Source: an uncultured Acidobacteriota bacterium (GTDB lineage: Bacteria; Acidobacteriota; Thermoanaerobaculia; Multivoradales; JAHEKO01). Taken from it: a stretch of 64,000 bases of DNA. Both the position numbers and the translations under genes were made by a program. Every line of letters begins with the position of its first letter. Positions within the stretch are counted from its first letter, which is position 1. This document shows positions 1 through 20,836 of this stretch, in pieces. Location of the stretch: contig CAVQNG010000003.1 of assembly GCA_963713825.1 (NCBI GenBank), forward strand, positions 768,001 to 832,000, written 5' to 3'. The notes under the pieces were generated by a model. The model was not told the origin of the DNA and did not search any database. It worked only from the letters and a program-made list of their open reading frames with translations.

Positions 1-1210
1 GCTGCGCCCAGAGCTTGCGGGCGACAGCTTCGCCAAGGTCGGCGAAGAAGGGCAGGGCGATCTCTTCGTATTCGTACTCGTCGTCGTTGAGGATGCCGTC
101 GGCGTTGGTGTAGATCGTCGCGGCCAGAAAGAAACCCTGGCCGGTCTCGGTATCCACTACCCATGCGTTCTCGGTGCTGAACCCGTAGGCCTGCCCGGTT
201 TTGTTGTAGATCTGCAAACGCTCTTTGGGGATCACTCTCTCGAGCCCAGGCAGCAGGTCCTTGACATAGGTGTCCGGGTACTCCTCGGGGTCGTAGACCG
301 GATTCGTCGATTCGCGTGGGTACTGCGACATGGCCTCCAGCATCACCTGCCGGTCTGTCTCGTCGAGCTCGAAGCCAGGGCCCCCACAATCGACGTCGGG
401 ACGTACCAGCATACATAGACCTCGCTGCAGATCGACCAGAGGGAAATGATTCTTGGGAGTGAAGTCCATCGGCTGGTCGATCCGCTCGTCGCCGGAAAAG
501 TACCCCTCGCCGACCAGAATCCGCTGCGCCGGCACCGCTGGTGCCAAGGGCTCAGCCGTGCGCTCGGGAAGCGTGTAGGAGAAGTCCTCTCCGAGAAAAT
601 CGATCCTGGGTGACTGGAGGTTTTCCTCGGCTGTGCGGAATTCCGACAGGCGGTGGACGATGCGCGGCGACTCCAGGCCGGCCCGCCGCATCGCTTCGGT
701 CAAACCGTCCTGCCCCACGAGCTCGTAGAGATAGTTGAACGCCTGGTTGTCGGAGACGAGAAAGATCTTGCGAATCTGTTGCCGCACCGTAATCGCGCCG
801 CCCGCGACATTCTCCTCGTCCAGCGACTCCATCTCGCCGTCTTCGAATTGCGGGTGGTATACGAGTGGCGTGTCCAGGTCGATGGGCAACTCGGTCGTTT
901 CCCGCAGCTCAGCCAATTTCTGGGCCGCCGCTACTGCGGCAAACAGCTTCACCGTGCTGGCTGGATAGAAATACTCGGCTCCAGCCCGGAACTCCTGCTG
1001 ACGCAAGATGGGCGTGCCCTCGGGCCCCTCCTCCACCAGGCCCAAGACGACCTGCAGGCGATAGTCGGCAGCATGATCCACAACTTCGGCTGGGTCCTCA
1101 TGGGAAGCGAGTATCGTTGCAAGCGGTTCTTCTTGGTCCATCCCACAACCTCCCAGGACACCACCGAGTCCAACGACTAGAAGAAGCGAGACAACAAGCC
1201 GGCTTTGCAT
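1..1210 (-). CDS. Class A beta-lactamase-related serine hydrolase, lipoprotein (3' end outside window)
   Basis: Hand-translated, not in the ORF track: MQSRLVVSLLLVVGLGGVLGGC lipobox, SxxK motif YPASTVK, and IYNKTGQAYGF (KTG motif). The frame is still open at the window edge. Confidence 0.8.
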   Translation of the reverse strand, partial: MQSRLVVSLLLVVGLGGVLGGCGMDQEEPLATILASHEDPAEVVDHAADYRLQVVLGLVEEGPEGTPILRQQEFRAGAEYFYPASTVKLFAAVAAAQKLAELRETTELPIDLDTPLVYHPQFEDGEMESLDEENVAGGAITVRQQIRKIFLVSDNQAFNYLYELVGQDGLTEAMRRAGLESPRIVHRLSEFRTAEENLQSPRIDFLGEDFSYTLPERTAEPLAPAVPAQRILVGEGYFSGDERIDQPMDFTPKNHFPLVDLQRGLCMLVRPDVDCGGPGFELDETDRQVMLEAMSQYPRESTNPVYDPEEYPDTYVKDLLPGLERVIPKERLQIYNKTGQAYGFSTENAWVVDTETGQGFFLAATIYTNADGILNDDEYEYEEIALPFFADLGEAVARKLWAQ

Positions 1211-1220
1211 CACTTCTCTC

Positions 1221-2600
1221 CTACGGACGGTCGAGATCCAACTCTCGGGTCTGTTGCTCCGTCGCCAGCACGGTGGCCAATGGCTGCCGTTCGTTGATCA
1301 CCGTCGCCCCATCCCCATCCACCAGGACCTCAGCCGGCCGGCCGTGATCGTTGTAGTTGGAGACCATGGACATTCCATAGGCACCGGCCGAGAAGATGGT
1401 CACGAGGTCACCCCGCGCCATCGGCGGGAGCTGTCGATTCCTGGCCAAGAAGTCTCCCGTCTCGCAGATGGGTCCCACGACATCACAGGTTTCGAGACCT
1501 GGCAGCCCGGGATCCTCGAGGAGCCTTGGAGCCTCCCCGGTCCAGGCGACTGGCCAGACAAAATGGAAGGCGCGGTAAAGGGCCGGCCGGATCAGGCTGT
1601 GCATACCGGCGTCACAGATCACAAAGGTCTTGCCCCGCCCTTTCTTGACGTGCTGTACGCGGGTGACCAGGACGCCGGAATTGGCCATGATGCAGCGACC
1701 CGGCTCCATCAAGACCTGCAGGCCCTTCTGGGTGCGCTCAGCAAGCAACGGCACGAGTCGCTCCGCATAGTCCTCCAGCGGTGGTACCTCACCCTCGACA
1801 TAGTTGATCGGCCAACCACCGCCGAGATCCAGCACCTCGATCTTGTGTCCGCGGCGCTCGAGCTCGTCGACCAGTTCGAGCAGCACCTCGACAGCTTCGG
1901 CAAAGGGCTCGACTTTCGGTACTGGAGAGCCGATATGGACGTGCAGCCCCACCAGGTCGACGCCTCTGTCCCGGCCCCAGGCATCGAAGATCTCTGGGAT
2001 CTGGTGGGCGTCGATGCCGAATTTGTTCTCTTCCTTCCCCGTTGTCGTGTACTCGTGCGTGTGGGGGTCGACATCGGGGTTGACTCGCAGACAGACCCGG
2101 GGTCTGACGCCGAGCTCGTTGCCCCAGTAGGCGATGCGCTCGAGCTCCGAAGTGGATTCCGCGTTGAGGATGCCAACCGGGCCCCGGCTCTCGGGCTCAC
2201 GCTCCGGCAGTCCGGAAATGCCCTCCAGTGTGTGAAAGCGCCCATCGAGGGCCGAGCGAATCTCTTCGTCGGTCTTACCAACACCGGCGAAGACCATGCC
2301 AGCTGTTGGCGCTCCGGCAAACCAGGCCCGGTCGAGCTCGCCTCCCGAGACCACGTCCATGCCGGCGCCCAGGTCGTGCATGAGGCGACACAAGTGGAGA
2401 TTGGGGCTGGACTTGACTGCATATTGAAAGCGCACTCCCAGAGGGGAAAAAGCCGCCTCCAGCCGGCGATAGGCGGCTCGGATCGCCGTCGCCGAGTAGA
2501 TATAGGTCGGTGTCCCGACCGAATCGACGATCGCTGGGATGGGCACCCCGTCTGCGTGTAGAACTCCGTTCTGATAAACGAATGCCTCGATGTCTTTCAT
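1221..2600 (-). CDS. lysA: Diaminopimelate decarboxylase
   Basis: YAVKS (PLP lysine), HVHIGS, DLGGG, EPGR, GPICETGD, GAYG. Confidence 0.93.
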   Translation of the reverse strand: MKDIEAFVYQNGVLHADGVPIPAIVDSVGTPTYIYSATAIRAAYRRLEAAFSPLGVRFQYAVKSSPNLHLCRLMHDLGAGMDVVSGGELDRAWFAGAPTAGMVFAGVGKTDEEIRSALDGRFHTLEGISGLPEREPESRGPVGILNAESTSELERIAYWGNELGVRPRVCLRVNPDVDPHTHEYTTTGKEENKFGIDAHQIPEIFDAWGRDRGVDLVGLHVHIGSPVPKVEPFAEAVEVLLELVDELERRGHKIEVLDLGGGWPINYVEGEVPPLEDYAERLVPLLAERTQKGLQVLMEPGRCIMANSGVLVTRVQHVKKGRGKTFVICDAGMHSLIRPALYRAFHFVWPVAWTGEAPRLLEDPGLPGLETCDVVGPICETGDFLARNRQLPPMARGDLVTIFSAGAYGMSMVSNYNDHGRPAEVLVDGDGATVINERQPLATVLATEQQTRELDLDRP

Positions 2601-2640
2601 GGGATAACCCTACCTCGTGTGCTTGTTGGTCAGTCGCCGG

Positions 2641-4089
2641 TCAGCGCGCTACCGGATACAGATACTCATACCGTCGTCGGATCCGTTCGACGCCGCCCGC
2701 GTCATTCATTTCGAAGACCACCAGCTCGCCGTCCGACATCTTGAAGGTGTTGCCCCCGGCAGGCTCGAGTCGTGTCAGGCCCTCGGTCGCATCATCTTCC
2801 GGCGGATAGTTGTGCGAGTAAAGTGCCAGTCCGTCGTCGAGGATCATGACCTGGTACTCCCAGCCCCACGGATCGGTGTAGACACCCAGGTACCCCTGCC
2901 AGGCGGGATCGACGCGTCTCTCAGCTGGAGCTACTGCTGTGCTCTCGGTAATGGCGTCTCCAACCAGGTCGAGCGCCTGGTAGCTGAACAGATAGGGGCT
3001 TGCATCGTCGGCGTTGACCATGGCGATGATGGCGAGATTCTCATCCGGCGCCAGAAGGAAGTGGGTCCTGTTGCCGCCGATCCACCCTCCGTGGGAGACG
3101 AGAGTCTTCTCGTTTCGCCGGGAGATTCCGAATCCCAGGCCGCGCCCTCCCGTCCAACTGGAGTAGACCCAGTGCGAACGCTGCATCTCATGCAGGGTGC
3201 TGGGCTTGACAACTTCGCTGTCACCGGACTCTGGGGCCGCGCTCAGATGCAGCGTTGCGAAACGAGTCATATCATCTACAGACGAGACAATGTTGGCGGC
3301 CGGCGCCATTGCATTGGTCTCGTAGTACTCCATCTCTCGTCGGCTGCCATCGGCCTGCCGCCGCATGTAGGCCGTCGCCATCCTCTGGCGGTCCTCGTCA
3401 GCGGGAATGACGACGGACTGATTCATCCCCAGGGGCTCGAAGATGTGCTGCTGGATGTACTCCGCATAGCTCTGCCCGGAAGCAGCAACCACGACCTCTC
3501 CCAATAGGGCCATCCCCAGGTTCGAGTACTTATAGGTCTTGTCTGGAGGGTAGATCGCGGATTGCGTGCGAACGGCGGCGATCAACTCTTCGGTCGAAGG
3601 AAACTCGTGCGTCGTCCAGTAGGGAAAAGCAGCCTCCCGCGGCAGGCCCGCCGTGTGGGTCAGCAGGTGCCGCAGAGTGATCTCGGGCGCACCTTCGAAA
3701 GTGCTTCGCAGCTCGAATCCGGGAAGGTGACGAGTCACCGGGTCATCGAGTCGCAGCTTGCCCTGGTCGCGCAGTTGCAGGATCGCCGTGGCGGTGAAGA
3801 GCTTGGTGACCGAGCCGAGCCGAAAGAGCGTCGCCGGAGTCACGGGGTCTTGTGACTCCAGATCTTCGACGCCATAGCCCTTCGACCAGATCACCTCCTG
3901 GTCATGGACGATGCCGATGGCCAGGCCCGGGATCTGTTGGTAGGCCATCTGCTCCTGGATCCAGAGATCCAACAGGCTCACGGCGTCCCGAACCTGTCGG
4001 TGCTCTTCCAGAAAGTCGGCAGCTCGAGCAATCGCCGGCAGCACCAGAAGCAGAAGCGTCAGAAGGACGGGGGATCTTGCTCTCAACAC
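2641..4089 (-). CDS. Secreted serine hydrolase, beta-lactamase (class C-like) family
   Basis: Signal peptide, GSVTK (SxxK), LLTHTAG, YSN, HGG. Confidence 0.88.
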   Translation of the reverse strand: MLRARSPVLLTLLLLVLPAIARAADFLEEHRQVRDAVSLLDLWIQEQMAYQQIPGLAIGIVHDQEVIWSKGYGVEDLESQDPVTPATLFRLGSVTKLFTATAILQLRDQGKLRLDDPVTRHLPGFELRSTFEGAPEITLRHLLTHTAGLPREAAFPYWTTHEFPSTEELIAAVRTQSAIYPPDKTYKYSNLGMALLGEVVVAASGQSYAEYIQQHIFEPLGMNQSVVIPADEDRQRMATAYMRRQADGSRREMEYYETNAMAPAANIVSSVDDMTRFATLHLSAAPESGDSEVVKPSTLHEMQRSHWVYSSWTGGRGLGFGISRRNEKTLVSHGGWIGGNRTHFLLAPDENLAIIAMVNADDASPYLFSYQALDLVGDAITESTAVAPAERRVDPAWQGYLGVYTDPWGWEYQVMILDDGLALYSHNYPPEDDATEGLTRLEPAGGNTFKMSDGELVVFEMNDAGGVERIRRRYEYLYPVAR

Positions 4090-4132
4090 AAATGCCGCTC
4101 CTTTCTACGCACTGTCTCGGGCGACCCGGGAC

Positions 4133-5782
4133 TCAATGGCCGCCAACCCATCCGGGGCCCTTGACGAACCGGCCCGGCATGGCCCCGGTGTGTTCACCTT
4201 CCTTCAAAACCTGCTCGCCGTTGACGAAGACATGGATGACACCGGTCGCCAACTGGTGGGGCTCCTCGAAGGTCGCTCGGTCGATCACCGCTGCGGGGTC
4301 GAATACGACCACGTCGGCGAAGGCGTCCGGCGCCAGCTTGCCGCGGCCTTCCAGCTTCAGGTTGCTCGCTGGCAAACCTGTCAGGCGATGGATCGCCTCT
4401 TCGAGCGAGATGACCCCCTCCTCGCGTACGTACTTGCCGAGCAGTCGGGCAAACGAGCCGTAGGCCCGTGGGTGGGGTTGGGAGTTGGTGAAAGGCGGCT
4501 CGGGTGCCAGCGAGGCGGAGTCGGAGCAGAAGCTGACCCATGGCAGCGCGATTTTTCGGCGAATGTTGTCCTCGTTCATCGTGAACCGCACGGTGCCGAT
4601 TCGACTGTCGTCCTCGATGACCAGATCCATCGTCGTGACGACGGGAGAGGTACCCCGCATCGCGGCCACTTCGGCCAGGGTCTTGCCCGTCAGATGGCGC
4701 AGGTCTTCATTGCGAAAGCTCACCAGAAGAATGTCCTCCGGGGGAATCATCTCGGTCTCGGCGATGACACGCTCGCGAACGGCAGGATCTTTGAGGCGCG
4801 CGGTGCGTTCCTCGTGATCGCCCTCCTTCACCCAGGCTGGTAGGTCGTAATTCAGGCCCGTCGAGCTTGCATGGTAGGTGTAGATGTCAGCGGTGACGGC
4901 AAGCCCTTCCTGCCGTGCCGCCTCGATCAGTGCCACAACGTCGTCGAGCTTGTCCCAGTTGCGCTTGTGCGACACCTTCAGGTGGTAGATCTCGCCGCGG
5001 ACGCCAGCCTCCCGGACGATCGTCACGAACTCCTCGAGGGCTGCGAAGATCTCGTCGCCCTCGTTGCGGATATGGGAGATGTACATGCCGTCGTGCTCGG
5101 CCGCCACCCGGGCCAAGGCGATCAACTCCTCCGTCGAAGCGAACGGCGCCGGAATATAGGGCAGCGAGGAGCCCACTCCCACAGCGCCCTCCTCCATGGC
5201 TTCCCGTACGAGTTGCAGCATCGCGTCGAGTTCCTCAGGCGTCGGATCCCGATCCTCGTATCCCATCTCGTGGATCCGCACCGTCGCAGCACCCACGAAT
5301 GACGCAACGTTGGTGGAGATGCCACGAGCCTCCAGGTGCTGCAGATACTCGCCCAGCGTCGTCCAGTCGACGTCGAACTCGATGTCGCTTTGGCGCTCGA
5401 CCATCTCCTGCTTCATGGTCTCGTTGAGCGGCCCCATCGAGTTTCCCTCACCCATGACCTCCAGCGTCACCCCTTGGCGGATGTCGCTCATGGAGCGCCC
5501 ATCCTGGATCAGCGATTCATTGGCCCAGCTCAGCATATTGATGAAGCCGGGCGCGACGGCCAGCCCGCTGGCGTCGATCTCGGCTCGGCCGGCGTGACCC
5601 TTCAAGTCACCGACCGCCACGATACGGTCGCCATCAATGGCCAGATCGCCCACGACGGGCGGCCCTCCGCTGCCGTCATAGAGGGTGCCCCCGCGGATGA
5701 CGACGTCGACTTCCTTCTTGCCACAGGCGCTGATCAGAAGAAGCGCTGACGGAATCACCAGCGCCAGAACGAGACTCTTCAT
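4133..5782 (-). CDS. N-acyl-D-amino-acid deacylase family amidohydrolase, lipoprotein
   Basis: Start moved to MKSLVLAL, lipobox ISAC, APGFI, SHIR, HPRAYGSF, ADVVVFDP. Confidence 0.85.
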   Translation of the reverse strand: MKSLVLALVIPSALLLISACGKKEVDVVIRGGTLYDGSGGPPVVGDLAIDGDRIVAVGDLKGHAGRAEIDASGLAVAPGFINMLSWANESLIQDGRSMSDIRQGVTLEVMGEGNSMGPLNETMKQEMVERQSDIEFDVDWTTLGEYLQHLEARGISTNVASFVGAATVRIHEMGYEDRDPTPEELDAMLQLVREAMEEGAVGVGSSLPYIPAPFASTEELIALARVAAEHDGMYISHIRNEGDEIFAALEEFVTIVREAGVRGEIYHLKVSHKRNWDKLDDVVALIEAARQEGLAVTADIYTYHASSTGLNYDLPAWVKEGDHEERTARLKDPAVRERVIAETEMIPPEDILLVSFRNEDLRHLTGKTLAEVAAMRGTSPVVTTMDLVIEDDSRIGTVRFTMNEDNIRRKIALPWVSFCSDSASLAPEPPFTNSQPHPRAYGSFARLLGKYVREEGVISLEEAIHRLTGLPASNLKLEGRGKLAPDAFADVVVFDPAAVIDRATFEEPHQLATGVIHVFVNGEQVLKEGEHTGAMPGRFVKGPGWVGGH

Positions 5783-5887
5783 GGTTGGTCCCCCCTCGCT
5801 CGAGAAAGCATAGACTACCAGCCGGGAGGCGCTTCGCGACACCGCCATGCCGCGCAATTCGCACCGTTTTAGATTCCGGAGATTTCC

Positions 5888-7543
5888 TTGGTGATCAGGC
5901 TTTCTACTCTGTTTTTCGCCGCACTGCTGTCTTTCGCAGCGCACGGTTTCACCCCTCAGGAGCTGTGGCAAGACTGGCCGGAGGAACGCTTCGAGACGGC
6001 CGTCGCGCCCTGCCTGCGCCACGCCCAGTTGATGCAGAGCTTGCAAGCTCTGCAGTCCCGGTTTCCGGACAGCCTGCAAATCGAGACAGTCGGAGAGTCC
6101 TTCCTGGGACGCTCCATCCGCATGGTCACCCTGGGGCGGGGAGAGAGGAAGATCCTGCTCTGGTCGCAGATGCACGGCGACGAGCCCTCGGCCACCCCGG
6201 CCCTACTCGACATCGCCCACTATCTTCTCGAGCATCGGCAAGAGCCGGCCTCTCAATCGATCCTCGACAGCTTCACCCTGCTGATGATCCCGATGCTCAA
6301 CCCTGACGGCGCCGAGATCTACCAAAGACGCAATGCTCAGGCGATCGACATCAACCGTGACGCGCTGAATCTGGTCACTCCCGAGGGGAGAATTCTCAAG
6401 CGGGTGCGAGATGAGCACGAGCCCATGCTGGGCTTCAACCTGCACGACCAGAACCGCCGCACTGCCGTCGGTGACACGGGCCTCCTGGCGACCAATGCGG
6501 TCCTGGCTGTGGCCGGTGATCCGGAGAACACGCTGACACCCGGCCGGCTCCGGGCCAAACGTGCCTGCGCGGCAATCGTCGAGGCTCTGGCCCCTTTCAT
6601 GCCTGGCGGGATGGCGCGCTACGACGAAGATTGGAGCCCGCGGGCCTTCGGCGACAACCTGACCGCCTGGGGAACGCCAGTGGTGCTGATCGAGAGTGGC
6701 GGTATACCGTCCGGGCATGATTTCACGGTGCTGACACGTCTCAATTTCGTGGCCATTCTCACCGCTCTCGAAGGTCTGGCCCGAGACGATCTTGCCGGCT
6801 ACGACCCGCGTGTTTACGAGGACCTCCTACGCAACCAATCCAACTCGTGGTCCGACGTCGTCGTTCGCGACGCCTACGTCCTGCAACCTGGCACCACTCG
6901 GGCCTACCGGGCCGATCTCGCTTTCGATCGCCTCCGCAGCGACCGTCAGGATGTCGGCTGCTCCCAAGGTGCCACTGTGCGCTCGCGGATCTCCGAGATC
7001 GGAGATGCTCGCTTCCTGGGGGCAGGAGAGAGCCTGGAGGCCAATGACAGCCTGTTGCTGGCTCCGTTCGAAGTCGGCGTCGAGGGGTGGTCAGCCCGCA
7101 AGTGGCTCGATGAAGCCCGTCTCGCCCGCCTCGCCGACCTTGGGGTCGGAACTCTCTACTGGTCGGTCAACCAGCGTCGCAGCGCGGCGGCGCGTAACCT
7201 CGCCAACCAGTCGAGGGCCAGCGGCCTGCCCAGCATCGAGGTTGTAACAGCACCTTCCCCCTTGCCAACGCTGGTCCTCTCGGGACCGCCAGGAGAAGCG
7301 GCATCGGCATCACTCGCCGCCGTCCTCGAGGCACTGGGAGCCGAAGGATGGAACACCTTGGAACAGCTACAGGCTCTCTGGGTACAGCGGCCCGGTACCG
7401 AGCCCAACCCTCCCCGTCTGCGGCAGGGACTGGCGGCCTCGTTTCTCCTCCTTTCGCCCGCACCCGAGGGTCGCGTCGATTTCACCAAAGCCCGCCTGAC
7501 CGCCGTCTGGCTCGATGGCCACAAGATCGAAGGGACGCCGTGA
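5888..7543 (+). CDS. Secreted M14 zinc carboxypeptidase
   Basis: Signal peptide, QMHGDE (HxxE), NPDG, RRNAQAIDINRD, NLHDQ. Confidence 0.85.
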   Translation: MVIRLSTLFFAALLSFAAHGFTPQELWQDWPEERFETAVAPCLRHAQLMQSLQALQSRFPDSLQIETVGESFLGRSIRMVTLGRGERKILLWSQMHGDEPSATPALLDIAHYLLEHRQEPASQSILDSFTLLMIPMLNPDGAEIYQRRNAQAIDINRDALNLVTPEGRILKRVRDEHEPMLGFNLHDQNRRTAVGDTGLLATNAVLAVAGDPENTLTPGRLRAKRACAAIVEALAPFMPGGMARYDEDWSPRAFGDNLTAWGTPVVLIESGGIPSGHDFTVLTRLNFVAILTALEGLARDDLAGYDPRVYEDLLRNQSNSWSDVVVRDAYVLQPGTTRAYRADLAFDRLRSDRQDVGCSQGATVRSRISEIGDARFLGAGESLEANDSLLLAPFEVGVEGWSARKWLDEARLARLADLGVGTLYWSVNQRRSAAARNLANQSRASGLPSIEVVTAPSPLPTLVLSGPPGEAASASLAAVLEALGAEGWNTLEQLQALWVQRPGTEPNPPRLRQGLAASFLLLSPAPEGRVDFTKARLTAVWLDGHKIEGTP

Positions 7544-11571: not shown

Positions 11572-11590
11572 TTATTCCTGCGGGCTCTCA

Positions 11591-13045: not shown

Positions 13046-13097
13046 TCGTCACCTCCCCCGATCGACGCTCGCCAGGCTCGTGCTACGAGAGATTGGG

Positions 13098-13838
13098 TCA
13101 TCCGCGCGGCATTATATGTCTCAACGCCGGCCATTCACCGCCGGCCGCCGCGAGATCGAGGACCACATCGAGCCTGTCGTGGCCGCGGAGCAACGAGCAG
13201 GGCCACGCGGGCGTTTCCGGTCCGTCCAGCAGCGCGTGCACGGCCTTCGCCTTGGCTTCGCCGACCGCCAGCATGACTAGACGACGGGCGGAGAGCAGCG
13301 TTTCCACCCCCATGGTGACAGCCCGCAGGGGTCTCCAGTCCTCGGGTACTTCCAGGGACTCTGCCAAATCCGGGGGAAGCAGCACAGGGTGGGTTGTTGC
13401 CTGTGGTGGTCCAGGTAGGTTGTAGGCCACATGGCCATCCGCTCCAACTCCCAGGAACACCAGGTCCAGGCCTCCCGCCGCCGCCACGGCTTCATCGTAG
13501 CGCGTGCATTCGAGCCCGGGCTCTGCCTCTGCTTTGGGGATGTCGCATCGCTCGGGGTCGAGACCGATGCGCGTCCAAGCGTGGCGCCGCATGAAGCTCT
13601 GAAAGGAGGCCGGATGATCCCCGGGCAGTAGCAACTCGTCGAGGTTGAAAGCCTTGGCCCGGGAGAGATCCAGGTCTCCCTGGGAGTGGAGCCTCGACAA
13701 CTCCTCGTAAACGGGAATCGGCGTGCGGCCCGTAGGTAACCCCAGAACCAGCTCGGGCTCGTCGCTGGCGGCGAGCGCGATCAATGCCGCGACCGATCTC
13801 GCGGCGGCGTGCGCATCGCTGTGGATCAGAAGGTTCAA
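13098..13838 (-). CDS. nagB: Glucosamine-6-phosphate deaminase-like protein
   Basis: LGLPTGRTP, FNLDE, GVGADGHVAYN. Confidence 0.75.
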   Translation of the reverse strand: MNLLIHSDAHAAARSVAALIALAASDEPELVLGLPTGRTPIPVYEELSRLHSQGDLDLSRAKAFNLDELLLPGDHPASFQSFMRRHAWTRIGLDPERCDIPKAEAEPGLECTRYDEAVAAAGGLDLVFLGVGADGHVAYNLPGPPQATTHPVLLPPDLAESLEVPEDWRPLRAVTMGVETLLSARRLVMLAVGEAKAKAVHALLDGPETPAWPCSLLRGHDRLDVVLDLAAAGGEWPALRHIMPRG

Positions 13839-14596
13839 AGCTCTCCAAAATGGGTCAGCAGAATGCCCCCCTCACTGATGGCTCGGAGCGCCTCAGGATG
13901 GGTCAGAACTGCGAGCTCTTGTTCGCGCTCATCGGCATAGCTGCTGTCGAGGCGTAGTGCCTCATCGACCCTGGCCGGATGGCACATCAACTCCGTGACT
14001 CCCGGCGCGAGATTGCCCAGGATCTCCAGAAGAACCTCCAGCCGCGCCTCGGAGCCGAAGAAGCGCTCGACAAAAAAGTCACTGGTCGCGACACCCGCCT
14101 GGCGCAGCCGCTCTCCGACTTCGTCCGAGGCGTTACGGACCGGCAAGCTGTACCTCTCAGCAATCTTGACCAGGGCATCGCAGACCATGGGTAAGCGGTG
14201 AGAGTGGTGGTGGCTGTCGAGATGCGTTGGCAAGCGACCAGCCAGGGCACGGAAGCGCTCGAACTGGGCCTCGACCTCGGCCATCACCTCCTCGGGGCGC
14301 GCCCCCTCGAGGCCCTCTGGCTTGGCGGGAAATCTCCCCTCCCCATCAACCAGACTGGGCACCTCCTCTGATGGCAAGATTGGCCTCCCCCCTGTCAGGG
14401 CGACGTGAAGGCCGATACCGATTTCCGGGGAGCTTGCCCATGCCTCGGTTGCTTCCTTGGCGGGGGTGAATCCCACCATGAGCGTTGCGCTGGTGACCAG
14501 GCCCCGGGCGTGTGCCTCGAAGATCCCGGCATTGATGCCCGGAGTCCGCCCCAGATCGTCGGCATTGACGATGAGTCGCTTCTCTGTTTCAGGCAT
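13835..14596 (-). CDS. ChbG/HpnK (YdjC) family carbohydrate deacetylase
   Basis: Start moved to MPETEK. IVNADDLG, GLH, HLDSHHH, ELMCHP. Confidence 0.88.
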   Translation of the reverse strand: MPETEKRLIVNADDLGRTPGINAGIFEAHARGLVTSATLMVGFTPAKEATEAWASSPEIGIGLHVALTGGRPILPSEEVPSLVDGEGRFPAKPEGLEGARPEEVMAEVEAQFERFRALAGRLPTHLDSHHHSHRLPMVCDALVKIAERYSLPVRNASDEVGERLRQAGVATSDFFVERFFGSEARLEVLLEILGNLAPGVTELMCHPARVDEALRLDSSYADEREQELAVLTHPEALRAISEGGILLTHFGEL

Positions 14597-15492
14597 TAGC
14601 TCAACAGCTCGAGGGCTAGCGTCACGGCACCGGTCGCCGGCTCTTTCTCCAGTCGAACAACCTCTGCCTTGGGCAGATCCAGATTGCTCTCGACTCGCTC
14701 GAAGAGACTGGGACAGGCTCGGAAGGCGCCACCGGCGAGTACCAGCGGGTAGTTCTCGGTGAACGTCAGCTTTCGATCGACGGCCCTGGCCGCCCGTGCC
14801 AGATGCTGTGCCGCCTGATCCAAGAGTGAGTTCGCCGCCACGTCGCCGTCGTCGGCCGCCTCCTGGACGACACTGGCCAGCTTGGCCACGCGGTCGCGGG
14901 ACAGCTCCTGGTCGTAGAACCACTTGACGAGACCCTCGGGAACGTCCAGGTCGAGCTTCTGGGAGATGAGATCGAAGAGCGTTGTCGCCGGCCCTCGGCC
15001 GTCCACCGCCCGCACGCCCTGCCGCACCGCCGCGTGACCCAACCAGAAGGCCGACCCTTCGTCACCCAGGAGGTAGCCCCAACCACCAGAGCGAGCCGTC
15101 TCGCCGCTCGGGTCCACCCCGTAGGCGATCGAGCCGGTCCCCGCCGAGACCACGATGCCGATCCCCTCCGGCGCTCCCGCCACCAGGGCGATGAGCGCGT
15201 CGTTGACGATCGAAATATTCTTGCGCAGTCCTAGTCGGCGTAGCAGGCCCTGGATCAAAGCCTTCTCTTCGGGTCTGTCCACACCCGCCATGCCGAGGCA
15301 AATCGTGTCGATCGGACCTGGGGCCTCCAGGTCTTCGATGACCTGATAGAGGACCTTCTCCACGCTCAACTCGCCGTGGATGACGAGATTCGCTCCCCCG
15401 CCGCGGGCCTTGGCGAGAACCTTGCCCGTCTCGTCCGCCAACAGACCTACCGTCTTCGTGCCACCCGAATCGATGCCGACGACATATCGCAA
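14596..15492 (-). CDS. BadF/BadG-type N-acetylglucosamine/N-acetylmuramic acid kinase
   Basis: GIDSGGTKT, VNDA, AGTGSIA, GGWGYLLGDEGSA. Confidence 0.87.
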   Translation of the reverse strand: MRYVVGIDSGGTKTVGLLADETGKVLAKARGGGANLVIHGELSVEKVLYQVIEDLEAPGPIDTICLGMAGVDRPEEKALIQGLLRRLGLRKNISIVNDALIALVAGAPEGIGIVVSAGTGSIAYGVDPSGETARSGGWGYLLGDEGSAFWLGHAAVRQGVRAVDGRGPATTLFDLISQKLDLDVPEGLVKWFYDQELSRDRVAKLASVVQEAADDGDVAANSLLDQAAQHLARAARAVDRKLTFTENYPLVLAGGAFRACPSLFERVESNLDLPKAEVVRLEKEPATGAVTLALELLS

Positions 15493-15535
15493 GAGATCAC
15501 CCCTCCTCCAGACGGTTCAGAGAATACAGGACTTC

Positions 15536-16546
15536 CTACCCTTCACGTGGTCGTACTCCCAGTCCCGGTTCCTTCGGCAGGAGGAGTCGGCCGTCCCTGA
15601 CCGTGACACCGACAAAGGGATCGTCCTTGATCAGAAGGTTGCCATCGAGATCGGCATGGTCGACGAGCGGCGACAGGTGGGCAGCGGCAGTGATGGCCAG
15701 GGACGACTCCACCATGCACCCCAGCATGACTTGCATCCCGTGAGCCCGGGCCACGGCGATCATCCGTCGGGCCTCGGCAATACCACCGCACTTCATGAGC
15801 TTGATGTTGATCCCATCGAAGGCTCCAGCCAGGCGGGGAATGTCGGTAGCCCGGTGGACGCTTTCGTCGGCAAACAGAGGCAGGGGGCTGAGCCGACGCA
15901 ACTCGCGCATCTCCTCGATCTGCCCGGCCGGCAGCGGCTGCTCGACCAACTCGACGCCCATGAACTCGAGCCACTCGAGCCTCGCTTGGGCTCCCTCCAG
16001 CGTCCAACCTTCGTTGGCATCGACCCGCAAGGGTCGATCTGTAACCCCTCGAACGGCTTCCAGAATCTGCCGATCATCGTCCGACCCCAGCTTGACCTTG
16101 AGTACCTCGTAGTCGCCGGCCTCCTTGACCTTCGCCTCCACGACCTCCGGCGTGTCCATTCCGATCGTGAAGGAGGTCACCGGCGCCTGCCGTGCATCGA
16201 TCCCCAGCAACTCATAGAGAGGCACCCCCAGCCTCTTGCCCGCCATGTCGCAAAGCGCCATGTCCATCGCGGCCTCGGCGGCAGCTTCGCCAGGGACGGC
16301 GACACTATTCGCCGCCGAGTCGTAAGCCGCAGGGTTGGTCAATCGCTCCGCCATCGACTCTGCGGCCCTGGCTGCCGAATCGCAATCCTGACCATAGCGC
16401 TCGATGGGCGCCGCCTCTCCGAGCCCCACGACTCCGCCCTGCTCCAGTTCCAAGACAAGCGTCTTTCGGGTGTCGCTCGCCCCGCGCGCCAGGCGAAAGG
16501 TGTGGCGCAGCTCGAGGCTCTGTTGAAGGTGTCGTAGCTGGATCAT
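15536..16546 (-). CDS. L-Ala-D/L-Glu dipeptide epimerase (enolase superfamily)
   Basis: LKVKLG, VDANEGW, VEQP, ADES, NIKLMKCGG, GCMVES, DLDG. Confidence 0.88.
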   Translation of the reverse strand: MIQLRHLQQSLELRHTFRLARGASDTRKTLVLELEQGGVVGLGEAAPIERYGQDCDSAARAAESMAERLTNPAAYDSAANSVAVPGEAAAEAAMDMALCDMAGKRLGVPLYELLGIDARQAPVTSFTIGMDTPEVVEAKVKEAGDYEVLKVKLGSDDDRQILEAVRGVTDRPLRVDANEGWTLEGAQARLEWLEFMGVELVEQPLPAGQIEEMRELRRLSPLPLFADESVHRATDIPRLAGAFDGINIKLMKCGGIAEARRMIAVARAHGMQVMLGCMVESSLAITAAAHLSPLVDHADLDGNLLIKDDPFVGVTVRDGRLLLPKEPGLGVRPREG

Positions 16547-16689
16547 GCCTCGCCTTCCCTTGTTTCCCTCGGCCAACCGGAGCATTTTATCTCGGCGACA
16601 GAGCCCCACCTGCGGGCTGGAAGTCCCGCTTGCTGTGTTATACAAAGTCCCTCTCACAACGAATCCGATAACAGAGCTGCCTGCCGACC

Positions 16690-18753
16690 ATGCGCGCTAC
16701 AAACTCCATCCTTGCATCACTCCTGGCGATCGGCTTCACGCTACTGGCCTGCGGCCCCGAGTCTTCGAAACCCGGGTCGGCAGCGAAGTTCGAGTCTCGT
16801 GCCTCGCAACCCCCCTCCATTCTCCTGGTCACCCTCGACACGACAAGGGCCGACGCCCTGGGTTTCGAGACGGACAGCGTCGATACCCCCTCTTTGGATG
16901 CTCTGGCGGCGCGCGGCCAAGTATTTTCGCAGGCCTATGCCACCGCCCCTATGACGCTACCGGCCCACACCTCGATCCTGACCGGTCTCTACCCGTCAGA
17001 GCACGGCATCCATGAGAACGGCAGGAGATTCGCCGATTCCGAAAGCCTGTTGGCAGGCAAGCTCCAACGTCTCGGCTACAGCACTGCAGCCTTCGTCTCC
17101 GCCTTTCCCTTAGCGGCCGAGTTCGGACTGGCCTCGGGCTTCGATCACTACGACGACGGGCTGCCGGCCAATCAATCCGAGCGGCCGGCCAACGAGACCA
17201 CTGCCCGGGCGTTGGATTTCCTGAAGCAGACTTCGGCCACCCCGCTGTTCGTCTGGGTTCACTATTTCGATCCGCATGAACCCTATGAACCTCCGGAGCC
17301 CTTTCGGTCCCAGTACCCGAAGGACCCCTATCTCGGCGAGATCGCCTTCATGGATCGAGAGTTGGGCCGCTTGACGAGCGCCTTCGAAGCGCGGCTCGAA
17401 GGCAAGCCCTACAAGATCGTGGTGGCTGGAGACCATGGTCAGGGTCTCGGGGACCATGGCGAAGCCTTACACGGCAACCTGCTCTACCAGGGTGTGACGC
17501 GGGTTCCACTCATTGTTGCGGGGTCCGCAGTCGCTGCCGGCCGGATCGACGTTGCTGTCAGCACTCGCCGCATCTTCGACACCCTCCTCGGCTGGGCCAG
17601 CAGTGAAGACGCGAGCCCTGGTCTGTTGAGTGCCGCAACCGAATCCGTGCTGGCTGAGGCGTTCAAGCCCTATCTGCAGTACGGCTGGCAACCGCAAGTC
17701 ATGGCGGTCGATGGATCGACGAAGATCATCCTCTCGGGAGAGCTGGAAGTCTTCGACATCATTGCCGACCCGGCGGAAGCGACTGACCTCGCGGGTCGCG
17801 TCCAGGTCGATCCGGAGGTGATGAAGACGGTTCGAGACCACTGGGAGCGAGCCCTCTCTGGCCCCTTGGAGTCCGGTGCCATCTTGGGGCAGGAGGCGAC
17901 GGAGCGGCTGGCAAGCCTCGGCTATATCGGCTCTGAAGGGAACCCGCTGCTGCGCGACGGAGCGCCCAATCCGAAGGACATGGTCGACTTGTTCCACGAT
18001 CTCGATGTCGGCTCGGTGCTTTTCGTCCGCAAGGAGTACGAAAAAGCCTTGCCGCTCTACGAGCGCGTCCTCTCCGCTGATCCCTACAATCGTGCCGTCT
18101 GTCTCCATCTTGCCGTGGCTCATTCCGTGCTCGGTCATGAACAACGCGCTCTCGAGTACTTCGACCGCGCCAGGAAGATCAGTCCCGACTCTGTGGATCT
18201 ACAGCACTACCAGGCTATGCATCACTTTCGTCTTCAGCAGTGGGAGGAGGCCGAGCCCCTCTTCGAGATCGTCCTCGCCGCAACACCCGACAGGCTGCCG
18301 GCGCTAGAGTGTCTGGCTCAGATCCGCGAACGGCAAGGCCGCATCGAGGAAGCGAGCTCACTTCTCGAACGCATCGTGACCCTGAAGAGCGAACCGCAAG
18401 CCGAGTTTGTGAAGTTGGGTGAGATGAGAATGTCGGTCGGCGACACCCAGGAGGCGATCCGAGCTTTCGAGAGCGCTCGGGTACTTCAAGAGCAGGAGTT
18501 TGATCATTCCCTGGAGTTGGGGGTGCTCTATCTGGCCGACCGGCGACTCGTCGAGGCGGCAGCGAGCCTGGACAGGGTGACCCCTACCCACCCGGCCTAC
18601 CCCTTGGCGCTCTTCAAGCGCGCCCAGGTCAGCGTCCTGCTCGGTGAGCCCGACCGCGACCAGCGCATCCAACTGGCGCGCGACAACGCCGATGCCACGA
18701 CCGCACCTCTGATCGCCAACGAAAAACTGTTCAAAGGCCCACCAGCTCCTTAG
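16690..18753 (+). CDS. Sulfatase-like (alkaline phosphatase superfamily) lipoprotein with C-terminal TPR repeats
   Basis: Lipobox LLAC, LVTLDTTRAD, APMTLPAHTSILTG, HYFDPH, DHG, helical repeats at the C-terminus. Confidence 0.82.
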   Translation: MRATNSILASLLAIGFTLLACGPESSKPGSAAKFESRASQPPSILLVTLDTTRADALGFETDSVDTPSLDALAARGQVFSQAYATAPMTLPAHTSILTGLYPSEHGIHENGRRFADSESLLAGKLQRLGYSTAAFVSAFPLAAEFGLASGFDHYDDGLPANQSERPANETTARALDFLKQTSATPLFVWVHYFDPHEPYEPPEPFRSQYPKDPYLGEIAFMDRELGRLTSAFEARLEGKPYKIVVAGDHGQGLGDHGEALHGNLLYQGVTRVPLIVAGSAVAAGRIDVAVSTRRIFDTLLGWASSEDASPGLLSAATESVLAEAFKPYLQYGWQPQVMAVDGSTKIILSGELEVFDIIADPAEATDLAGRVQVDPEVMKTVRDHWERALSGPLESGAILGQEATERLASLGYIGSEGNPLLRDGAPNPKDMVDLFHDLDVGSVLFVRKEYEKALPLYERVLSADPYNRAVCLHLAVAHSVLGHEQRALEYFDRARKISPDSVDLQHYQAMHHFRLQQWEEAEPLFEIVLAATPDRLPALECLAQIRERQGRIEEASSLLERIVTLKSEPQAEFVKLGEMRMSVGDTQEAIRAFESARVLQEQEFDHSLELGVLYLADRRLVEAAASLDRVTPTHPAYPLALFKRAQVSVLLGEPDRDQRIQLARDNADATTAPLIANEKLFKGPPAP

Positions 18754-18778
18754 GGACTCCGGATCGCTGGACTGGAGA

Positions 18779-18933
18779 TTCGTTCGGGTGGTCCGACAGG
18801 GGACGGCGTCGGCTACTCAGACTGCAACGGGAGGCCGCCACATCGTCTCGTCATCACGCCCCCTCTCCTGTGCTCTCTCGTGGACCTTGCGCTGCGCTCG
18901 ACTCGGCGCCCCCTGTCGGACCACCCGAATGAA
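18779..18933. repeat. 24-bp inverted repeat enclosing a ~107-nt spacer (MITE-like element or structured RNA)
   Basis: TTCGTTCGGGTGGTCCGACAGGGG at 18779-18802 pairs with CCCCTGTCGGACCACCCGAATGAA at 18910-18933, with one G.T pair. Confidence 0.8.
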
Positions 18934-18955
18934 CCTCTGGCATCGTTGAAGGCAA

Positions 18956-19003
18956 TAGGGGCTTAGGGCAGTAGGGGCGTAAGGGCCTAGGGGTCTAGAG
19001 GAA
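18956..19003 (+). repeat. Degenerate 8-bp tandem repeat (TAGGGGNN x6) with G-quadruplex potential
   Basis: TAGGGGCT TAGGGCAG TAGGGGCG TAAGGGCC TAGGGGTC TAGAGGAA. Confidence 0.75.
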
Positions 19004-19020
19004 TGGGAGGGGGGCCACGG

Positions 19021-19107
19021 CCTCAAAGAACGGCCGGAGGTACAACGGCCGCCTCAACCCCAAGCACCCAAGGAACGGACGGACGTAGTCCGGGCGCCTC
19101 AACCCTC
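19021..19107 (-). repeat. Two tandem copies of a dispersed GGGTTGAGG-hairpin-TTCYTTG element
   Basis: Minus strand reads GAGGGTTGAGGCGCCCGGACTACGTCCGTCCGTTCCTTGGG, then GGGGTTGAGGCGGCCGTTGTACCTCCGGCCGTTCTTTGAGG. Confidence 0.7.
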
Positions 19108-20027
19108 TAGGACACGGCTCCTTCGAGGGCGACGAGCGTGCCGTTCGTGGCATCCAGGTGAACCTCGGTGCCGTAGGGTAGGGCCGTGTTGCGGTCTCCG
19201 TGGCCAAAAGTGCCACCGAAAACAACCGGAACAGCGAGCCTCTCGAGGCGCTCAACGAGGACCTCGCGGGTCGTGGGGTGCTGCTCGACCCCTACTTGGA
19301 TGTCGTCACAATCGGTGAAATCGCCAACCACGACTCCCGACACCCGGGACAGCACACCGGCCAGCTCGAAGTGCGTCAACAGTCGATCGACGCGGTAGGG
19401 AAGCTCTCCAACGTCCTCGAGAAACAGCACCGCACCGTCGAACTCGGGCTGCAGGCTTGTGCCCAGAAGTCGCGACAGCACTTCCAGGTTGCCTCCCAGA
19501 AGAGGCCCTCGCGCCACACCCGAAACCACATTCTCGAGCCCAAGCAACAGGATGCCGGGCTCCGGATTCTCGAGCAGTCTGAAGAGGGACTCTCTGTCTT
19601 CACGGGGAAGTCCCGCGAACTGACTGATCATCGGCCCGTGGATCGCTGCCACTCCGGACCGGGCGCATGTCGCGAGCAGCGCCGTGACATCGGAGAAACC
19701 GACGATCGGTTTCGGTCTCTCCAGAAGGGCCCGGCTGTCGATTTGCGCCAGGATTCGCAGCAAGCCGTACCCCCCACGGGCGAGAAAGATGGCTCTGCAC
19801 TCGGGGTCCGCGATGGCGGTGTTGAGCGCCTCCAACCGATGGTCGTCGTCGCCGGCCAGGAAGCCGTGCTTGGAGAAGAGGCTGGCCTCGTCGAAACATA
19901 GATCGTAGCGCCCCTCCAGGGCCTCGAGACCAGCCATGAACCGCTGCCTGTCGACCGGCCCTGAAGCCGCTACGACTCGAACCCGGTCCCCGACTTCCAG
20001 GCGGGGGGGGCGAAGGATCGCGCTCAT
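19107..20027 (-). CDS. ldcA: LD-carboxypeptidase (peptidase S66)
   Basis: ARGGYG, GFSDVT, GGNL, FLEDVGE, FGHG. Confidence 0.9.
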   Translation of the reverse strand: MSAILRPPRLEVGDRVRVVAASGPVDRQRFMAGLEALEGRYDLCFDEASLFSKHGFLAGDDDHRLEALNTAIADPECRAIFLARGGYGLLRILAQIDSRALLERPKPIVGFSDVTALLATCARSGVAAIHGPMISQFAGLPREDRESLFRLLENPEPGILLLGLENVVSGVARGPLLGGNLEVLSRLLGTSLQPEFDGAVLFLEDVGELPYRVDRLLTHFELAGVLSRVSGVVVGDFTDCDDIQVGVEQHPTTREVLVERLERLAVPVVFGGTFGHGDRNTALPYGTEVHLDATNGTLVALEGAVS

Positions 20028-20122
20028 CCCCCGATCCTATCCGCTCATCCTCGGAAGCGGGCCGAGCGACGGCCCCGAATACCTTACAATCGAACCCTCT
20101 CGCGCTGCCGGAGTCGACACCA

Positions 20123-20836
20123 ATGCCTCAGAGAACCCGCTTCGCTGATCTCCTCTCTGCCTGTACCGGAATCGTACTTATGGCGGCGTTGGCAGGCTGC
20201 GCCTCCTCGCCGGCGATTCATGATCGACCCGTCTCCTTTTCTGCCGCCCGACAACAGGCAACGCTCGATTACATCGCCAAGCATTACGGTAAAGAACCCT
20301 TGGACATCTCGATCGAGCCCCGAATCATCGTTTTGCATTGGACGGCGATCCCCGACCTCGCCGGCTCTTTTGCTGCCTTCGAGGCCGAGCAGCTGCCGAG
20401 CTCTCGCCCAGACCTGGCAATGGCTGGACAGGTCAACGTCTCGATCCAGTTCCTCGTCGATCGCGACGGCACCGTCTACCGCCTCATGCCCGAGACGTGG
20501 ATGGCGCGGCATACGATCGGACTCAACTACAACTCCATTGGGGTCGAGAATGTCGGCGGTGGCGACAGCGTCGACAACATGACCGCTGCCCAGATCGAGG
20601 CCAACATCCGGCTCGTGCGTTACTTGGCCAAGAAATACCCATCGATCGAGTACCTGATCGGGCACTCGGAGTATCGCGAATTCGAAGGTCACCCCTTGTG
20701 GCTCGAACTGGACGACGACTACCGCACCGAGAAGGTCGATCCCGGAGATCGTTTCATGACGGCGGTCCGCGATGCGGTCGCTACGATCGGCTTGAAAGGT
20801 CCGGACGACGTTCGAGCCGAAAAGGAAGTCGAGTGA
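20123..20836 (+). CDS. N-acetylmuramoyl-L-alanine amidase (Amidase_2/PGRP-like), lipoprotein
   Basis: Lipobox LAGC, IVLHWT, ARHTIGLN, SIGVENVG, IGHSE, KVDPG. Confidence 0.87.
   Translation: MPQRTRFADLLSACTGIVLMAALAGCASSPAIHDRPVSFSAARQQATLDYIAKHYGKEPLDISIEPRIIVLHWTAIPDLAGSFAAFEAEQLPSSRPDLAMAGQVNVSIQFLVDRDGTVYRLMPETWMARHTIGLNYNSIGVENVGGGDSVDNMTAAQIEANIRLVRYLAKKYPSIEYLIGHSEYREFEGHPLWLELDDDYRTEKVDPGDRFMTAVRDAVATIGLKGPDDVRAEKEVE

Follow-up and report, generated by a model that had tools for sequence, protein, structure and literature searches.

We analyzed a 64,000-nucleotide stretch of DNA (the window; G000:C3:768001-832000) from an uncultured Thermoanaerobaculia-type sediment acidobacterium, together with the 18 kb of the same contig that lie directly upstream (L002), which between them hold a candidate locus for the breakdown of peptidoglycan. 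Positions are those of the window unless prefixed L002, and strands are given as + or -. Domains were called by scanning the open reading frames (ORFs) of the window and of the upstream segment with Pfam and NCBIfam profiles; signal peptides and lipoboxes were judged by eye from the translations, without a predictor. According to the ORF listing and these scans, positions 1-20836 hold 14 genes, 13 of which can be assigned to steps of murein breakdown. The original prediction had described a ~21 kb locus in which nearly every gene serves murein catabolism, and all of the glycan, amide-bond, stem-peptide, sugar and LysA domains that it named were found by Pfam or NCBIfam. It had missed a sulfatase-superfamily lipoprotein gene (16690-18753), and its boundary falls short: the content of 1-20836 is confirmed, and the locus continues for another 13.3 kb upstream of the window on the same contig. 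Measured from alr to the Amidase_2 gene, the locus spans ~34.2 kb and comprises 24 genes and one IS481 insertion.

Three domains that had been assigned to separate steps, NagZ, AmiE-like and NamZ, are all present, and they reside in a single ORF, a point that the original prediction did not make. This ORF encodes an exported GH3-AmiE-like-NamZ fusion protein of 1342 residues (7543..11571, +). Its likely start is at 7543, with an ATG that overlaps the stop codon of the M14 gene. The signal peptide is followed by a GH3 NagZ-type glucosaminidase domain (~7723-9279, +; PF00933, 288 bits against a cut-off of 27; GH3_C, 34.5 bits), an AmiE-like beta-lactamase-fold domain (~9382-10365, +; PF00144, 240.8 bits) and a NamZ (GH171) exo-muramidase domain (~10492-11571, +; NamZ_N, 243.5 bits; NamZ_C, 107 bits). 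The NamZ domains are full length, covering profile positions 2-202 of 203 (NamZ_N) and 2-152 of 152 (NamZ_C). The GH3 domain scores 161 bits on the NCBIfam NagZ model PRK05337, under the cut-off of 207, and contains the motif KH(F/I)PG(H/L)G....D(S/T)H, which we take to be the signature of the GH3 glucosaminidase subgroup and which reads KHFPGHGDTSTDSH here. The AmiE-like domain carries its SxxK motif, SLTK, at domain residue 78, and among the NCBIfam models it scores highest on PBP4B, with 179 bits, under the cut-off of 385.

Such fusions were surveyed with HMMER, the AmiE-like and NamZ segment of the protein serving as query, and the 150 best representatives at 50% identity were classified by blastp. 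In 105 of the 150 a fusion joins the AmiE-like domain and NamZ; 102 of these have the AmiE-like domain first and 3 have NamZ first. A GH3 domain precedes the AmiE-like domain in 15 representatives, the AmiE-like domain stands alone in another 15, NamZ occurs without it in 12, and two are partial. The triple GH3-AmiE-NamZ architecture is found in one representative of the 150; among public loci it is also found in Pyrinomonadaceae- and Solibacteraceae-labeled ones. The recurrent fusion with NamZ and GH3 supports a putative assignment of the AmiE-like domain as a muramoyl-alanine amidase. The NagZ, AmiE and NamZ proteins of Bacillus subtilis are reported to sequentially release N-acetylglucosamine (GlcNAc), peptide and N-acetylmuramic acid (MurNAc) from the non-reducing end (PMC8054146; bioRxiv 10.1101/2021.12.02.470905). 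The closest named record to the fusion protein comes from a Thermoanaerobaculia metagenome-assembled genome, at 66% identity.

Beside the fusion gene lie four genes for sugar uptake and use. They encode a sodium:solute symporter (SSS) that is a candidate MurNAc/GlcNAc importer (11591..13045, -; PF00474, 151.8 bits; TIGR00813, 220 bits), a NagB-like glucosamine-6-phosphate deaminase (13098..13838, -; PF01182, 94.9 bits; TIGR00502, 150 bits, under the cut-off of 236.9), a YdjC-family carbohydrate deacetylase (13835..14596, -; PF04794, 218 bits; chitin disaccharide deacetylase model, 209.5 bits, under the cut-off of 227) and a MurK-type MurNAc/GlcNAc kinase of the BadF/BcrA family (14596..15492, -; PF01869, 135 bits). 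The kinase matches PDB entry 8zo3, entitled 'N-acetylmuramic acid/N-acetylglucosamine kinase', over residues 1-293 of 298 (E 1.3e-49). The best match to NagA (TIGR00221) in the whole genome scores 27 bits against a cut-off of 225.65. The YdjC gene lies between the kinase and nagB genes, and we infer that YdjC stands in for NagA as the GlcNAc-6-P deacetylase.

The stem-peptide genes begin at the edge of the window with a gene for a Beta-lactamase2 lipoprotein serine hydrolase of 407 residues (1..1213, -; Pfam Beta-lactamase2, 56 bits; LGGC lipobox), the final three codons and stop of which extend 10 nucleotides beyond the edge. Its motifs are SxxK at 86, SDN at 154 and KTG at 338. An AlphaFold2 model, built with 8 relatives drawn from 14 loci after duplicates, truncated genes and genes with unclear starts were left out, has a predicted local distance difference test (pLDDT) score of 81.5 and shows a class A beta-lactamase fold with ~130 extra residues. 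In Foldseek the model comes closest to class A beta-lactamases (TMt 0.64-0.75, 12-19% identity), and the sequence has no match in the PDB. We dropped a specific peptidase identity for this protein because the fold search yields the generic class A fold only. The gene for diaminopimelate decarboxylase, lysA (1221..2600, -; TIGR01048, 414.8 bits against a cut-off of 297.9), comes next, followed by one for an exported class C/AmpH-like serine hydrolase, a putative DD-carboxy/endopeptidase (2641..4089, -; PF00144, 270 bits; signal peptide) with SVTK and YSN motifs and a score of 134 bits on the AmpH model, under the cut-off of 266. A D-aminoacylase-like lipoprotein amidohydrolase of 549 residues, counted from M132 of a long ORF (4133..5782, -; Amidohydro_3; LISAC lipobox), matches D-aminoacylase 1m7j (E 1.7e-75) and N-acyl-D-glutamate deacylase 3gip (E 4.8e-70) in the PDB.

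The exported M14 zinc carboxypeptidase (5888..7543, +; PF00246, 71.5 bits) has a signal peptide, a complete set of zinc ligands and catalytic glutamate, and a C-terminal extension of ~240 residues; H96xxE99, H186, E269 and N156-R157 do not vary among 24 sequences. The protein is a member of a large, uncharacterized family of ~550-residue proteins, with 7474 homologs at E<=1e-10. Its AlphaFold2 model (pLDDT 80.9, built on 23 of 120 listed homologs) matches M14 enzymes in Foldseek with a probability of 1.0, in a generic manner, the best matches being carboxypeptidases A, B and D.

Farther along lies a gene for a cytoplasmic enolase-superfamily enzyme, either a dipeptide epimerase of the L-Ala-D/L-Glu type or an N-acyl-D-Glu racemase (15536..16546, -; MR_MLE_C, MR_MLE_N). 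It scores 258.7 bits on the DgcA model (cut-off 400) and 180.3 bits on the YcjG model (cut-off 343). Its PDB matches include 3iji (E 7.8e-87), which we take to be a Bacteroides dipeptide epimerase, and 1jpd, entitled 'L-Ala-D/L-Glu epimerase' (E 1.5e-48). Elsewhere in the genome, a second small cluster (G000:C4:47529-52054) encodes proteins paralogous to the class C-like hydrolase, the Amidohydro_3 protein and the dipeptide epimerase, with identities of 31-36%. The remaining murein genes of the window encode a cytoplasmic, LdcA-like LD-carboxypeptidase of family S66 (19107..20027, -; PF02016, PF17676; no signal peptide) and an Amidase_2 lipoprotein, a predicted MurNAc-L-Ala amidase in an AmiD-like arrangement (20123..20836, +; PF01510, 78.5 bits; LAGC lipobox). 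The prediction that most of the hydrolases are exported is borne out for 7 of the 9 in the window: lipoboxes are present in the Beta-lactamase2, Amidohydro_3, sulfatase-superfamily and Amidase_2 proteins, and signal peptides in the class C-like hydrolase, the M14 protein and the fusion protein. LdcA, YdjC, the kinase, NagB, the epimerase and LysA have no export signal.

The one gene of the 14 without a murein assignment encodes a sulfatase-superfamily lipoprotein with tetratricopeptide repeats (TPR) (16690..18753, +; PF00884, 119.6 bits, plus TPR families; LLAC lipobox). We take the signature of formylglycine sulfatases to be C/S-x-P-x-R. At the aligned site this protein reads T-L-P-A-H, in which threonine and histidine replace the formylglycine cysteine or serine and the arginine, so we rejected a formylglycine sulfatase identity; because of this replacement, a phosphoesterase role appears likelier. 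That it acts as a phosphoesterase on wall-linked polymers is speculative. The gene is in the cluster in G003, G023, G036 and G033, and it has 8 paralogs in the genome.

The upstream part of the locus begins with alr (L002:4655-5830, -) and a gene encoding a 962-residue outer-membrane barrel with a CarboxypepD_reg domain (L002:5897-8785, -). In the barrel protein itself only CarboxypepD_reg and OMP_b-brl_4 domains are detected; its homologs at 53-58% identity match PF07715 (Plug) or PF00593 (TonB barrel), and one is named a TonB-dependent receptor. These are followed by murQ (L002:8945-9889, -; NF003915, 347.8 bits against a cut-off of 168; TIGR00274, 305.8 against 302), a gene for a DUF819 membrane protein (L002:9892-11202, +) and a gene for an Ord-like amine dehydrogenase (L002:11231-12232, +), the PDB relatives of which are entitled 'dihydrodipicolinate reductase' (7xdu, 6g1m) and 'amine dehydrogenase' (7qzl, 6iau). 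Next come genes for a SpmA/SpmB-like membrane protein with two Gate domains (L002:12611-13840, -; 'spore maturation protein' clusters in a protein atlas), an M20 amidohydrolase (L002:13859 to ~15080, -) and a second S66 LD-carboxypeptidase with a lipobox (L002:~15214-16308, +). The two-Gate-domain protein is the best-conserved product of the locus, its identity being 96-98% among members of the genus and 77-79% between families. In Bacillus, spmA and spmB adjoin a DD-carboxypeptidase gene. Together with the conservation, this neighborhood suggests that the two-Gate-domain protein may be a carrier of wall fragments. An IS481-family transposase gene (L002:16709-17740, +) belongs to an element (L002 ~16618-17970; C3:766618-767970) that sits between the convergent S66 lipoprotein and Beta-lactamase2 genes and disrupts neither. 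The site is empty in the same-genus genomes G003 and G004, and two transposase paralogs (62% identity) are present elsewhere in the genome.

As the original prediction had proposed, the rest of the genome, which is 96.4% complete, was checked for related genes; copy number was taken from tblastn matches at E<=1e-15 and coverage >=0.6. GH3, murQ, the kinase, nagB, ydjC, alr, M14, Amidase_2 and lysA are each present in a single copy, so that the only murQ and the only lysA are those of the locus and the only GH3 protein is the exported fusion. NamZ has one paralog, at 36% identity. AmpG (TIGR00901) and AnmK (PF03702) have no match in the genome at E<=0.001. DapF is present (171.9 bits, over the cut-off), and a DapA-like gene scores 181.6 bits, under the cut-off of 206. 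Away from the dcw region, the genome encodes a MurC/Mpl-family ligase that reaches 335.1 bits on Mpl (cut-off 388.7) and 315.4 bits on MurC, both under cut-off, and that is possibly Mpl.

We compared the locus with 40 genomes of the same order. The fused GH3-AmiE gene occurs in 11 of them (G001-G006, G011, G023, G033, G035 and G036), although in G001 and G002 it is truncated where the contig ends; NamZ is part of the fusion in G003, G004, G005, G023 and G033 and is encoded by a separate nearby gene in G006, G011, G035 and G036. In the same-genus genomes G003 and G004 the whole ~34 kb gene order is collinear, minus the insertion element. In G023, from another genus, and G036, from another family, the cluster is compact yet rearranged: both hold lysA, the class C-like hydrolase, amidohydrolase, M14, fusion, SSS, ydjC, kinase, receptor, sulfatase-TPR, Gate-protein and murQ genes, and G036 also holds the epimerase and M20 hydrolase genes. 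The receptor-like gene accompanies the cluster in G003, G004, G023, G036 and G033. The synteny expected by the original prediction is thus seen as collinearity within the genus and as clustering that persists across families, and because synteny is kept in relatives, a chance grouping of the locus genes is excluded. In G023:C5 (L082:11606-12742) and G036:C19 (L092:15807-17048), a gene that is not in the window's locus lies between the SSS and NamZ genes; it encodes a membrane protein with a DVFRG...ILVNNPG start that presumably resembles the HGSNAT/DUF1624 family. A response regulator gene and a histidine kinase gene are inserted beside the fusion gene in G036.

At greater distance, the fusion protein was used as a query to collect 79 public loci, in which the parts of the locus were counted by tblastn at coverage >=0.5. 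The GH3 part is present in all 79, the AmiE-like domain in 34/79, NamZ in 20/79, an SSS gene beside the GH3/NamZ genes in 16/79, the kinase in 14/79, murQ in 8/79, and M14 and lysA in 2/79 each. The glycan core recurs in Acidobacteriota, Gemmatimonadota and others, and the peptide genes are unlinked from it at such distance.

That lysA is embedded in the locus, as predicted, is evident from its position, since it lies on the same strand as the flanking exported-hydrolase genes at gaps of 7 and 40 nucleotides, and the gene is tied to the cluster across the clade. DapF is over cut-off in 38 of the 40 relatives, the two misses being genomes that are 87% and 68% complete, and LysA is over cut-off in 14 of the 40. 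LysA is present in all 11 of the relatives that carry the fused GH3-AmiE gene (10 of 10 if G006, a genome flagged as unpublished, is left out). Three relatives have LysA and no fusion (G030, G031 and G040), and the remaining 26 have neither, one of which (G026) has a GH3-only match. The lysA genes of the fusion-bearing genomes are 59-91% identical to the window's copy, and in all nine of those examined (G001-G004, G011, G023, G033, G035 and G036) lysA is flanked by locus genes. The lysA genes of G030, G031 and G040 are 31-39% identical to it and have no locus-gene neighbors within 10 kb. An alpha-aminoadipate route was considered as the lysine source of the LysA-less relatives and rejected, as LysX (TIGR02144) is over cut-off in only 2 of 41 genomes.

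A LysA search of a genome collection gave the same picture. Fourteen loci have LysA at >=62% identity, 13 with Acidobacteriota-type labels and one labeled Acidimicrobiia; three of them are the same records as G001, G023 and G035. At least one locus gene is found in the flank of 13 of the 14, the exception being a 4.3 kb contig, and the Beta-lactamase2 gene is the commonest neighbor, adjacent to lysA in 9 of the 14. Among 66 loci at <=51% LysA identity, mostly from Planctomycetota, only 3 have even a weak locus-gene match. In a quick maximum likelihood tree (LG+G4, 86 rows; 5 of 90 loci dropped as partial or split), the locus-type LysA proteins group into a single clade (SH-aLRT 100, stem 0.53) that is nested among Phycisphaerae-type Planctomycetota sequences (98-99), in a tree with long outgroup branches and similarity-based sampling. 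A planctomycetotal donor of lysA is, on this evidence, a lead rather than a result.

We consider it probable that the locus serves the utilization and salvage of peptidoglycan in the form of muropeptides. The TonB-receptor-like barrel would let wall fragments pass the outer membrane. Once these are in the periplasm, GlcNAc, stem peptide and MurNAc would be stripped in turn from their non-reducing end by the exported NagZ-AmiE-NamZ protein, and the Amidase_2 lipoprotein would also liberate peptides. The exported serine hydrolases, the lipoprotein LD-carboxypeptidase, the M14 enzyme and the D-aminoacylase-like lipoprotein would presumably trim cross-links and stem peptides to yield D-Ala, meso-diaminopimelate (mDAP) and Ala-Glu units. 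The SSS transporter would import MurNAc and GlcNAc, and the DUF819 and SpmA/B-like membrane proteins may import peptides or amino acids. Cytoplasmic sugars would pass from the MurK-type kinase to MurQ, YdjC and NagB and emerge as fructose-6-P; LdcA, the dipeptide epimerase and the M20 hydrolase would complete peptide breakdown, alr would convert D-Ala, and LysA would convert mDAP to lysine. The predicted end products are fructose-6-P, L-Ala, L-Glu and lysine. The domain families, the export signals, the clustering and distribution of the genes, the lack of an AmpG/AnmK route and the linkage of lysA are results of the analysis; from them we infer the substrates, what the receptor-like protein does, and which way material flows, including the flow from wall mDAP to lysine. 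A fuller account is possible, and we offer it tentatively: a lineage with mostly LysA-less relatives may have captured a Planctomycetota-type lysA and wired it into the exported wall-peptidase operon of a peptidoglycan system that reaches from outer membrane to cytoplasm, thereby coupling lysine supply to the eating of others' walls, with a single-chain NagZ-AmiE-NamZ protein stripping glycan strands unit by unit, and with two non-orthologous replacements, YdjC in place of NagA and an SSS carrier in place of MurP or MurT.

The locus is a variant of known peptidoglycan recycling and scavenging systems. Escherichia coli recycles murein in the cytoplasm with AmpG, NagZ, AmpD, AnmK, LdcA, MpaA, YcjG and Mpl. 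Counterparts in this genome are the LdcA-like protein, the dipeptide epimerase, MurQ, the M14 peptidase and possibly Mpl. Unlike in E. coli, neither AmpG nor AnmK was found, the sole NagZ is exported, and breakdown would precede uptake; the Amidase_2 protein is a lipoprotein, as is E. coli AmiD rather than AmpD. The arrangement of a TonB-receptor-like gene with lipoprotein or periplasmic hydrolases, an inner-membrane transporter and cytoplasmic catabolism resembles that of SusC/SusD polysaccharide utilization loci (PULs) and of the TonB-dependent GlcNAc clusters of Caulobacter, for which one report describes a GlcNAc-specific TonB receptor cluster (PMC13046382). Unlike the SusC/SusD PULs, the locus has neither a SusD-like gene nor a regulator among its ORFs scanned with Pfam, and unlike that of polysaccharide PULs, its substrate would be a glycopeptide, hence the peptidases and amino-acid enzymes.

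The murQ-murR-murP-amiE-nagZ-namZ operon of B. subtilis is reported likewise to use exported NagZ, AmiE-type amidase and NamZ in sequence, and MurQ for MurNAc-6-P (PMC8054146; bioRxiv 2021.12.02.470905). The enzymes are separate in B. subtilis, whereas in the locus they form one polypeptide in a diderm periplasm; uptake by the MurP phosphotransferase system would be replaced by that through the SSS transporter and kinase, no MurR regulator is present, and the locus adds peptide-degrading genes, an outer-membrane receptor-like gene and lysA to the scheme. In Tannerella forsythia, the murTKQ/NamZ cluster serves a life on the walls of other bacteria and, like the locus, comprises periplasmic NamZ enzymes, a MurNAc transporter outside the phosphotransferase system, a BadF-type kinase and MurQ (PMC10465942; PMC7670621). 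AmpG is reportedly used by Tannerella as well, and the MurNAc-L-Ala amidase of this organism has yet to be identified. The transporter family is probably different, since the Bacteroidota loci in our public set have kinase matches and no SSS matches; for this reason we do not claim the SSS transporter as a MurT equivalent. Tannerella salvages MurNAc for its own wall, whereas the locus has a catabolic arm (YdjC, NagB) and a peptide arm.

A different reading, which we regard as rather unlikely, is that the locus recycles the turnover products of the cell's own wall only, as a diderm version of the extracytoplasmic route of B. subtilis, with the barrel unrelated or devoted to another substrate. 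Any recycling of the own wall must also use the locus, because the genome has no second copy of GH3, murQ, the kinase, nagB, ydjC or Amidase_2, and the same three exo-enzymes are reported to work on the cell's own turnover in B. subtilis. The cytoplasmic LdcA and possible Mpl may also leave room for anabolic peptide recycling, in the form of tripeptide reuse. Against this reading, the wall turnover of a diderm typically yields 1,6-anhydro-MurNAc ends, and these would have no known entry, as no AnmK was found; the receptor-like gene travels with the cluster in five relatives; and the 26 of 40 relatives that have neither the fused gene nor LysA mark the fused gene as accessory rather than part of core wall maintenance. 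The receptor-like gene, this accessory distribution and the missing AnmK favor a foreign wall as the source. The original prediction of foraging rather than AmpG/AmpD recycling is partly supported, in that an AmpG/AnmK route was not found, the sole GH3 protein is exported, a TonB-receptor-like gene is present and lysA is linked; a restriction to foreign walls is not established, the core genes being single-copy. We also hold it unlikely that lysA is an ordinary biosynthetic gene that landed here by chance, with wall mDAP an insignificant source of lysine. It is the genome's only lysA and therefore also serves any de novo lysine synthesis, for which DapF and the DapA-like gene would make mDAP available. 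Against chance stand the short same-strand gaps to exported hydrolase genes, a linkage that survives rearrangements across at least three families, the lack of a lysine riboswitch in the locus by Rfam search, and the same-order genomes in which the other type of lysA has no such neighbors. Very improbable, in our estimate, is a substrate other than peptidoglycan, such as chitin or other GlcNAc glycans, D-amino-acid peptides, or antibiotics to which the beta-lactamase-fold proteins would confer resistance. YdjC, NagB, the kinase and GH3 would also suit the use of chitooligosaccharides, three beta-lactamase-fold proteins are present, and D-aminoacylases and dipeptide epimerases accept many D-peptides. 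Yet NamZ (GH171) and MurQ are specific to MurNAc chemistry, the use of chitin involves no LD-carboxypeptidase, Amidase_2 or LysA, and no serine hydrolase of the locus reaches the NCBIfam cut-off of any beta-lactamase family.

Several results weigh against the assignment of the locus to peptidoglycan utilization and salvage. No endo-acting muramidase or lytic transglycosylase is present in the locus, which leaves the first attack on intact sacculi unaccounted for. The outer-membrane protein has no Plug domain by Pfam and no sequence relative in the PDB. NagB, YdjC, LdcA, the epimerase and AmpH score below curated cut-offs. The original prediction had likened the M14 protein to MpaA; the M14 fold with intact catalytic residues holds, and a special likeness to MpaA does not, as there is no murein peptide amidase among 9 PDB sequence hits or 46 listed Foldseek rows (ranks 1-50, with gaps), leaving genomic context as the basis of a possible analogy. 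The housekeeping and salvage roles of lysA and alr are inseparable, both being sole copies, and the co-occurrence counts come from kindred genomes and are not independent events. Finally, the locus has no regulator gene that would tie its operons together, no 8-10-mer is common to at least three of five divergent promoter regions, and the Rfam search found no family in the locus. A consensus promoter and terminator scan gave fewer sites than shuffled sequence and no convincing terminator.

Peptidoglycan, muramic acid and D-amino acids make up a large, slowly degraded share of bacterial remains in soils and sediments. To our knowledge, few dedicated systems for peptidoglycan uptake and breakdown are known beyond Bacillus, Tannerella and enteric recycling. 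The locus provides a nearly complete gene-level model of peptidoglycan use for a widespread sediment acidobacterium. It yields predictions for enzymes (a trifunctional exo-muropeptidase, an M14 family with more than 7000 members, and YdjC as a GlcNAc-6-P deacetylase) and for carriers (an SSS transporter for MurNAc, and SpmA/B-like and DUF819 proteins for wall-derived peptides or amino acids). The patchy, apparently horizontally derived lysA beside wall-degrading genes would represent a salvage route bolted onto a catabolic locus. A literature search, with most subscription journals outside its reach, found no description of a trifunctional NagZ-AmiE-NamZ protein or of a locus for peptidoglycan that combines an outer-membrane receptor with lysA, and no report of YdjC as a GlcNAc-6-P deacetylase.

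At least half of the sampled words of window positions 5888-11571 are found in 18 metagenome runs from 12 studies (sediment, marine sediment and salt marsh). Contigs of RNA library X19 match the fusion gene over 251 nucleotides with 0 differences and over 249 nucleotides with 2, and the epimerase gene over 408 nucleotides with 0; the X19 matches overall have 0-3 differences over 239-408 nucleotides, and the uncovered stretches are uninformative. We take these contigs as a weak hint that the fusion and epimerase genes are transcribed; DNA carry-over is possible, and the contigs are silent on induction. A repeat of ~280 nucleotides is present at G000:C3:766311-766592 (L002:16311-16592), at window ~18760-19100 and in several intergenic gaps of the locus. 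More than 20 copies of it, 80-90% identical, are spread over at least seven contigs, and its copies in the locus show depth spikes in both DNA and RNA-library contigs. Directly after the locus, window positions 20861-25561 hold an unrelated, separate cluster that encodes a geranylgeranyl-reductase-like flavoprotein, an AMP-binding enzyme and a type III polyketide synthase.

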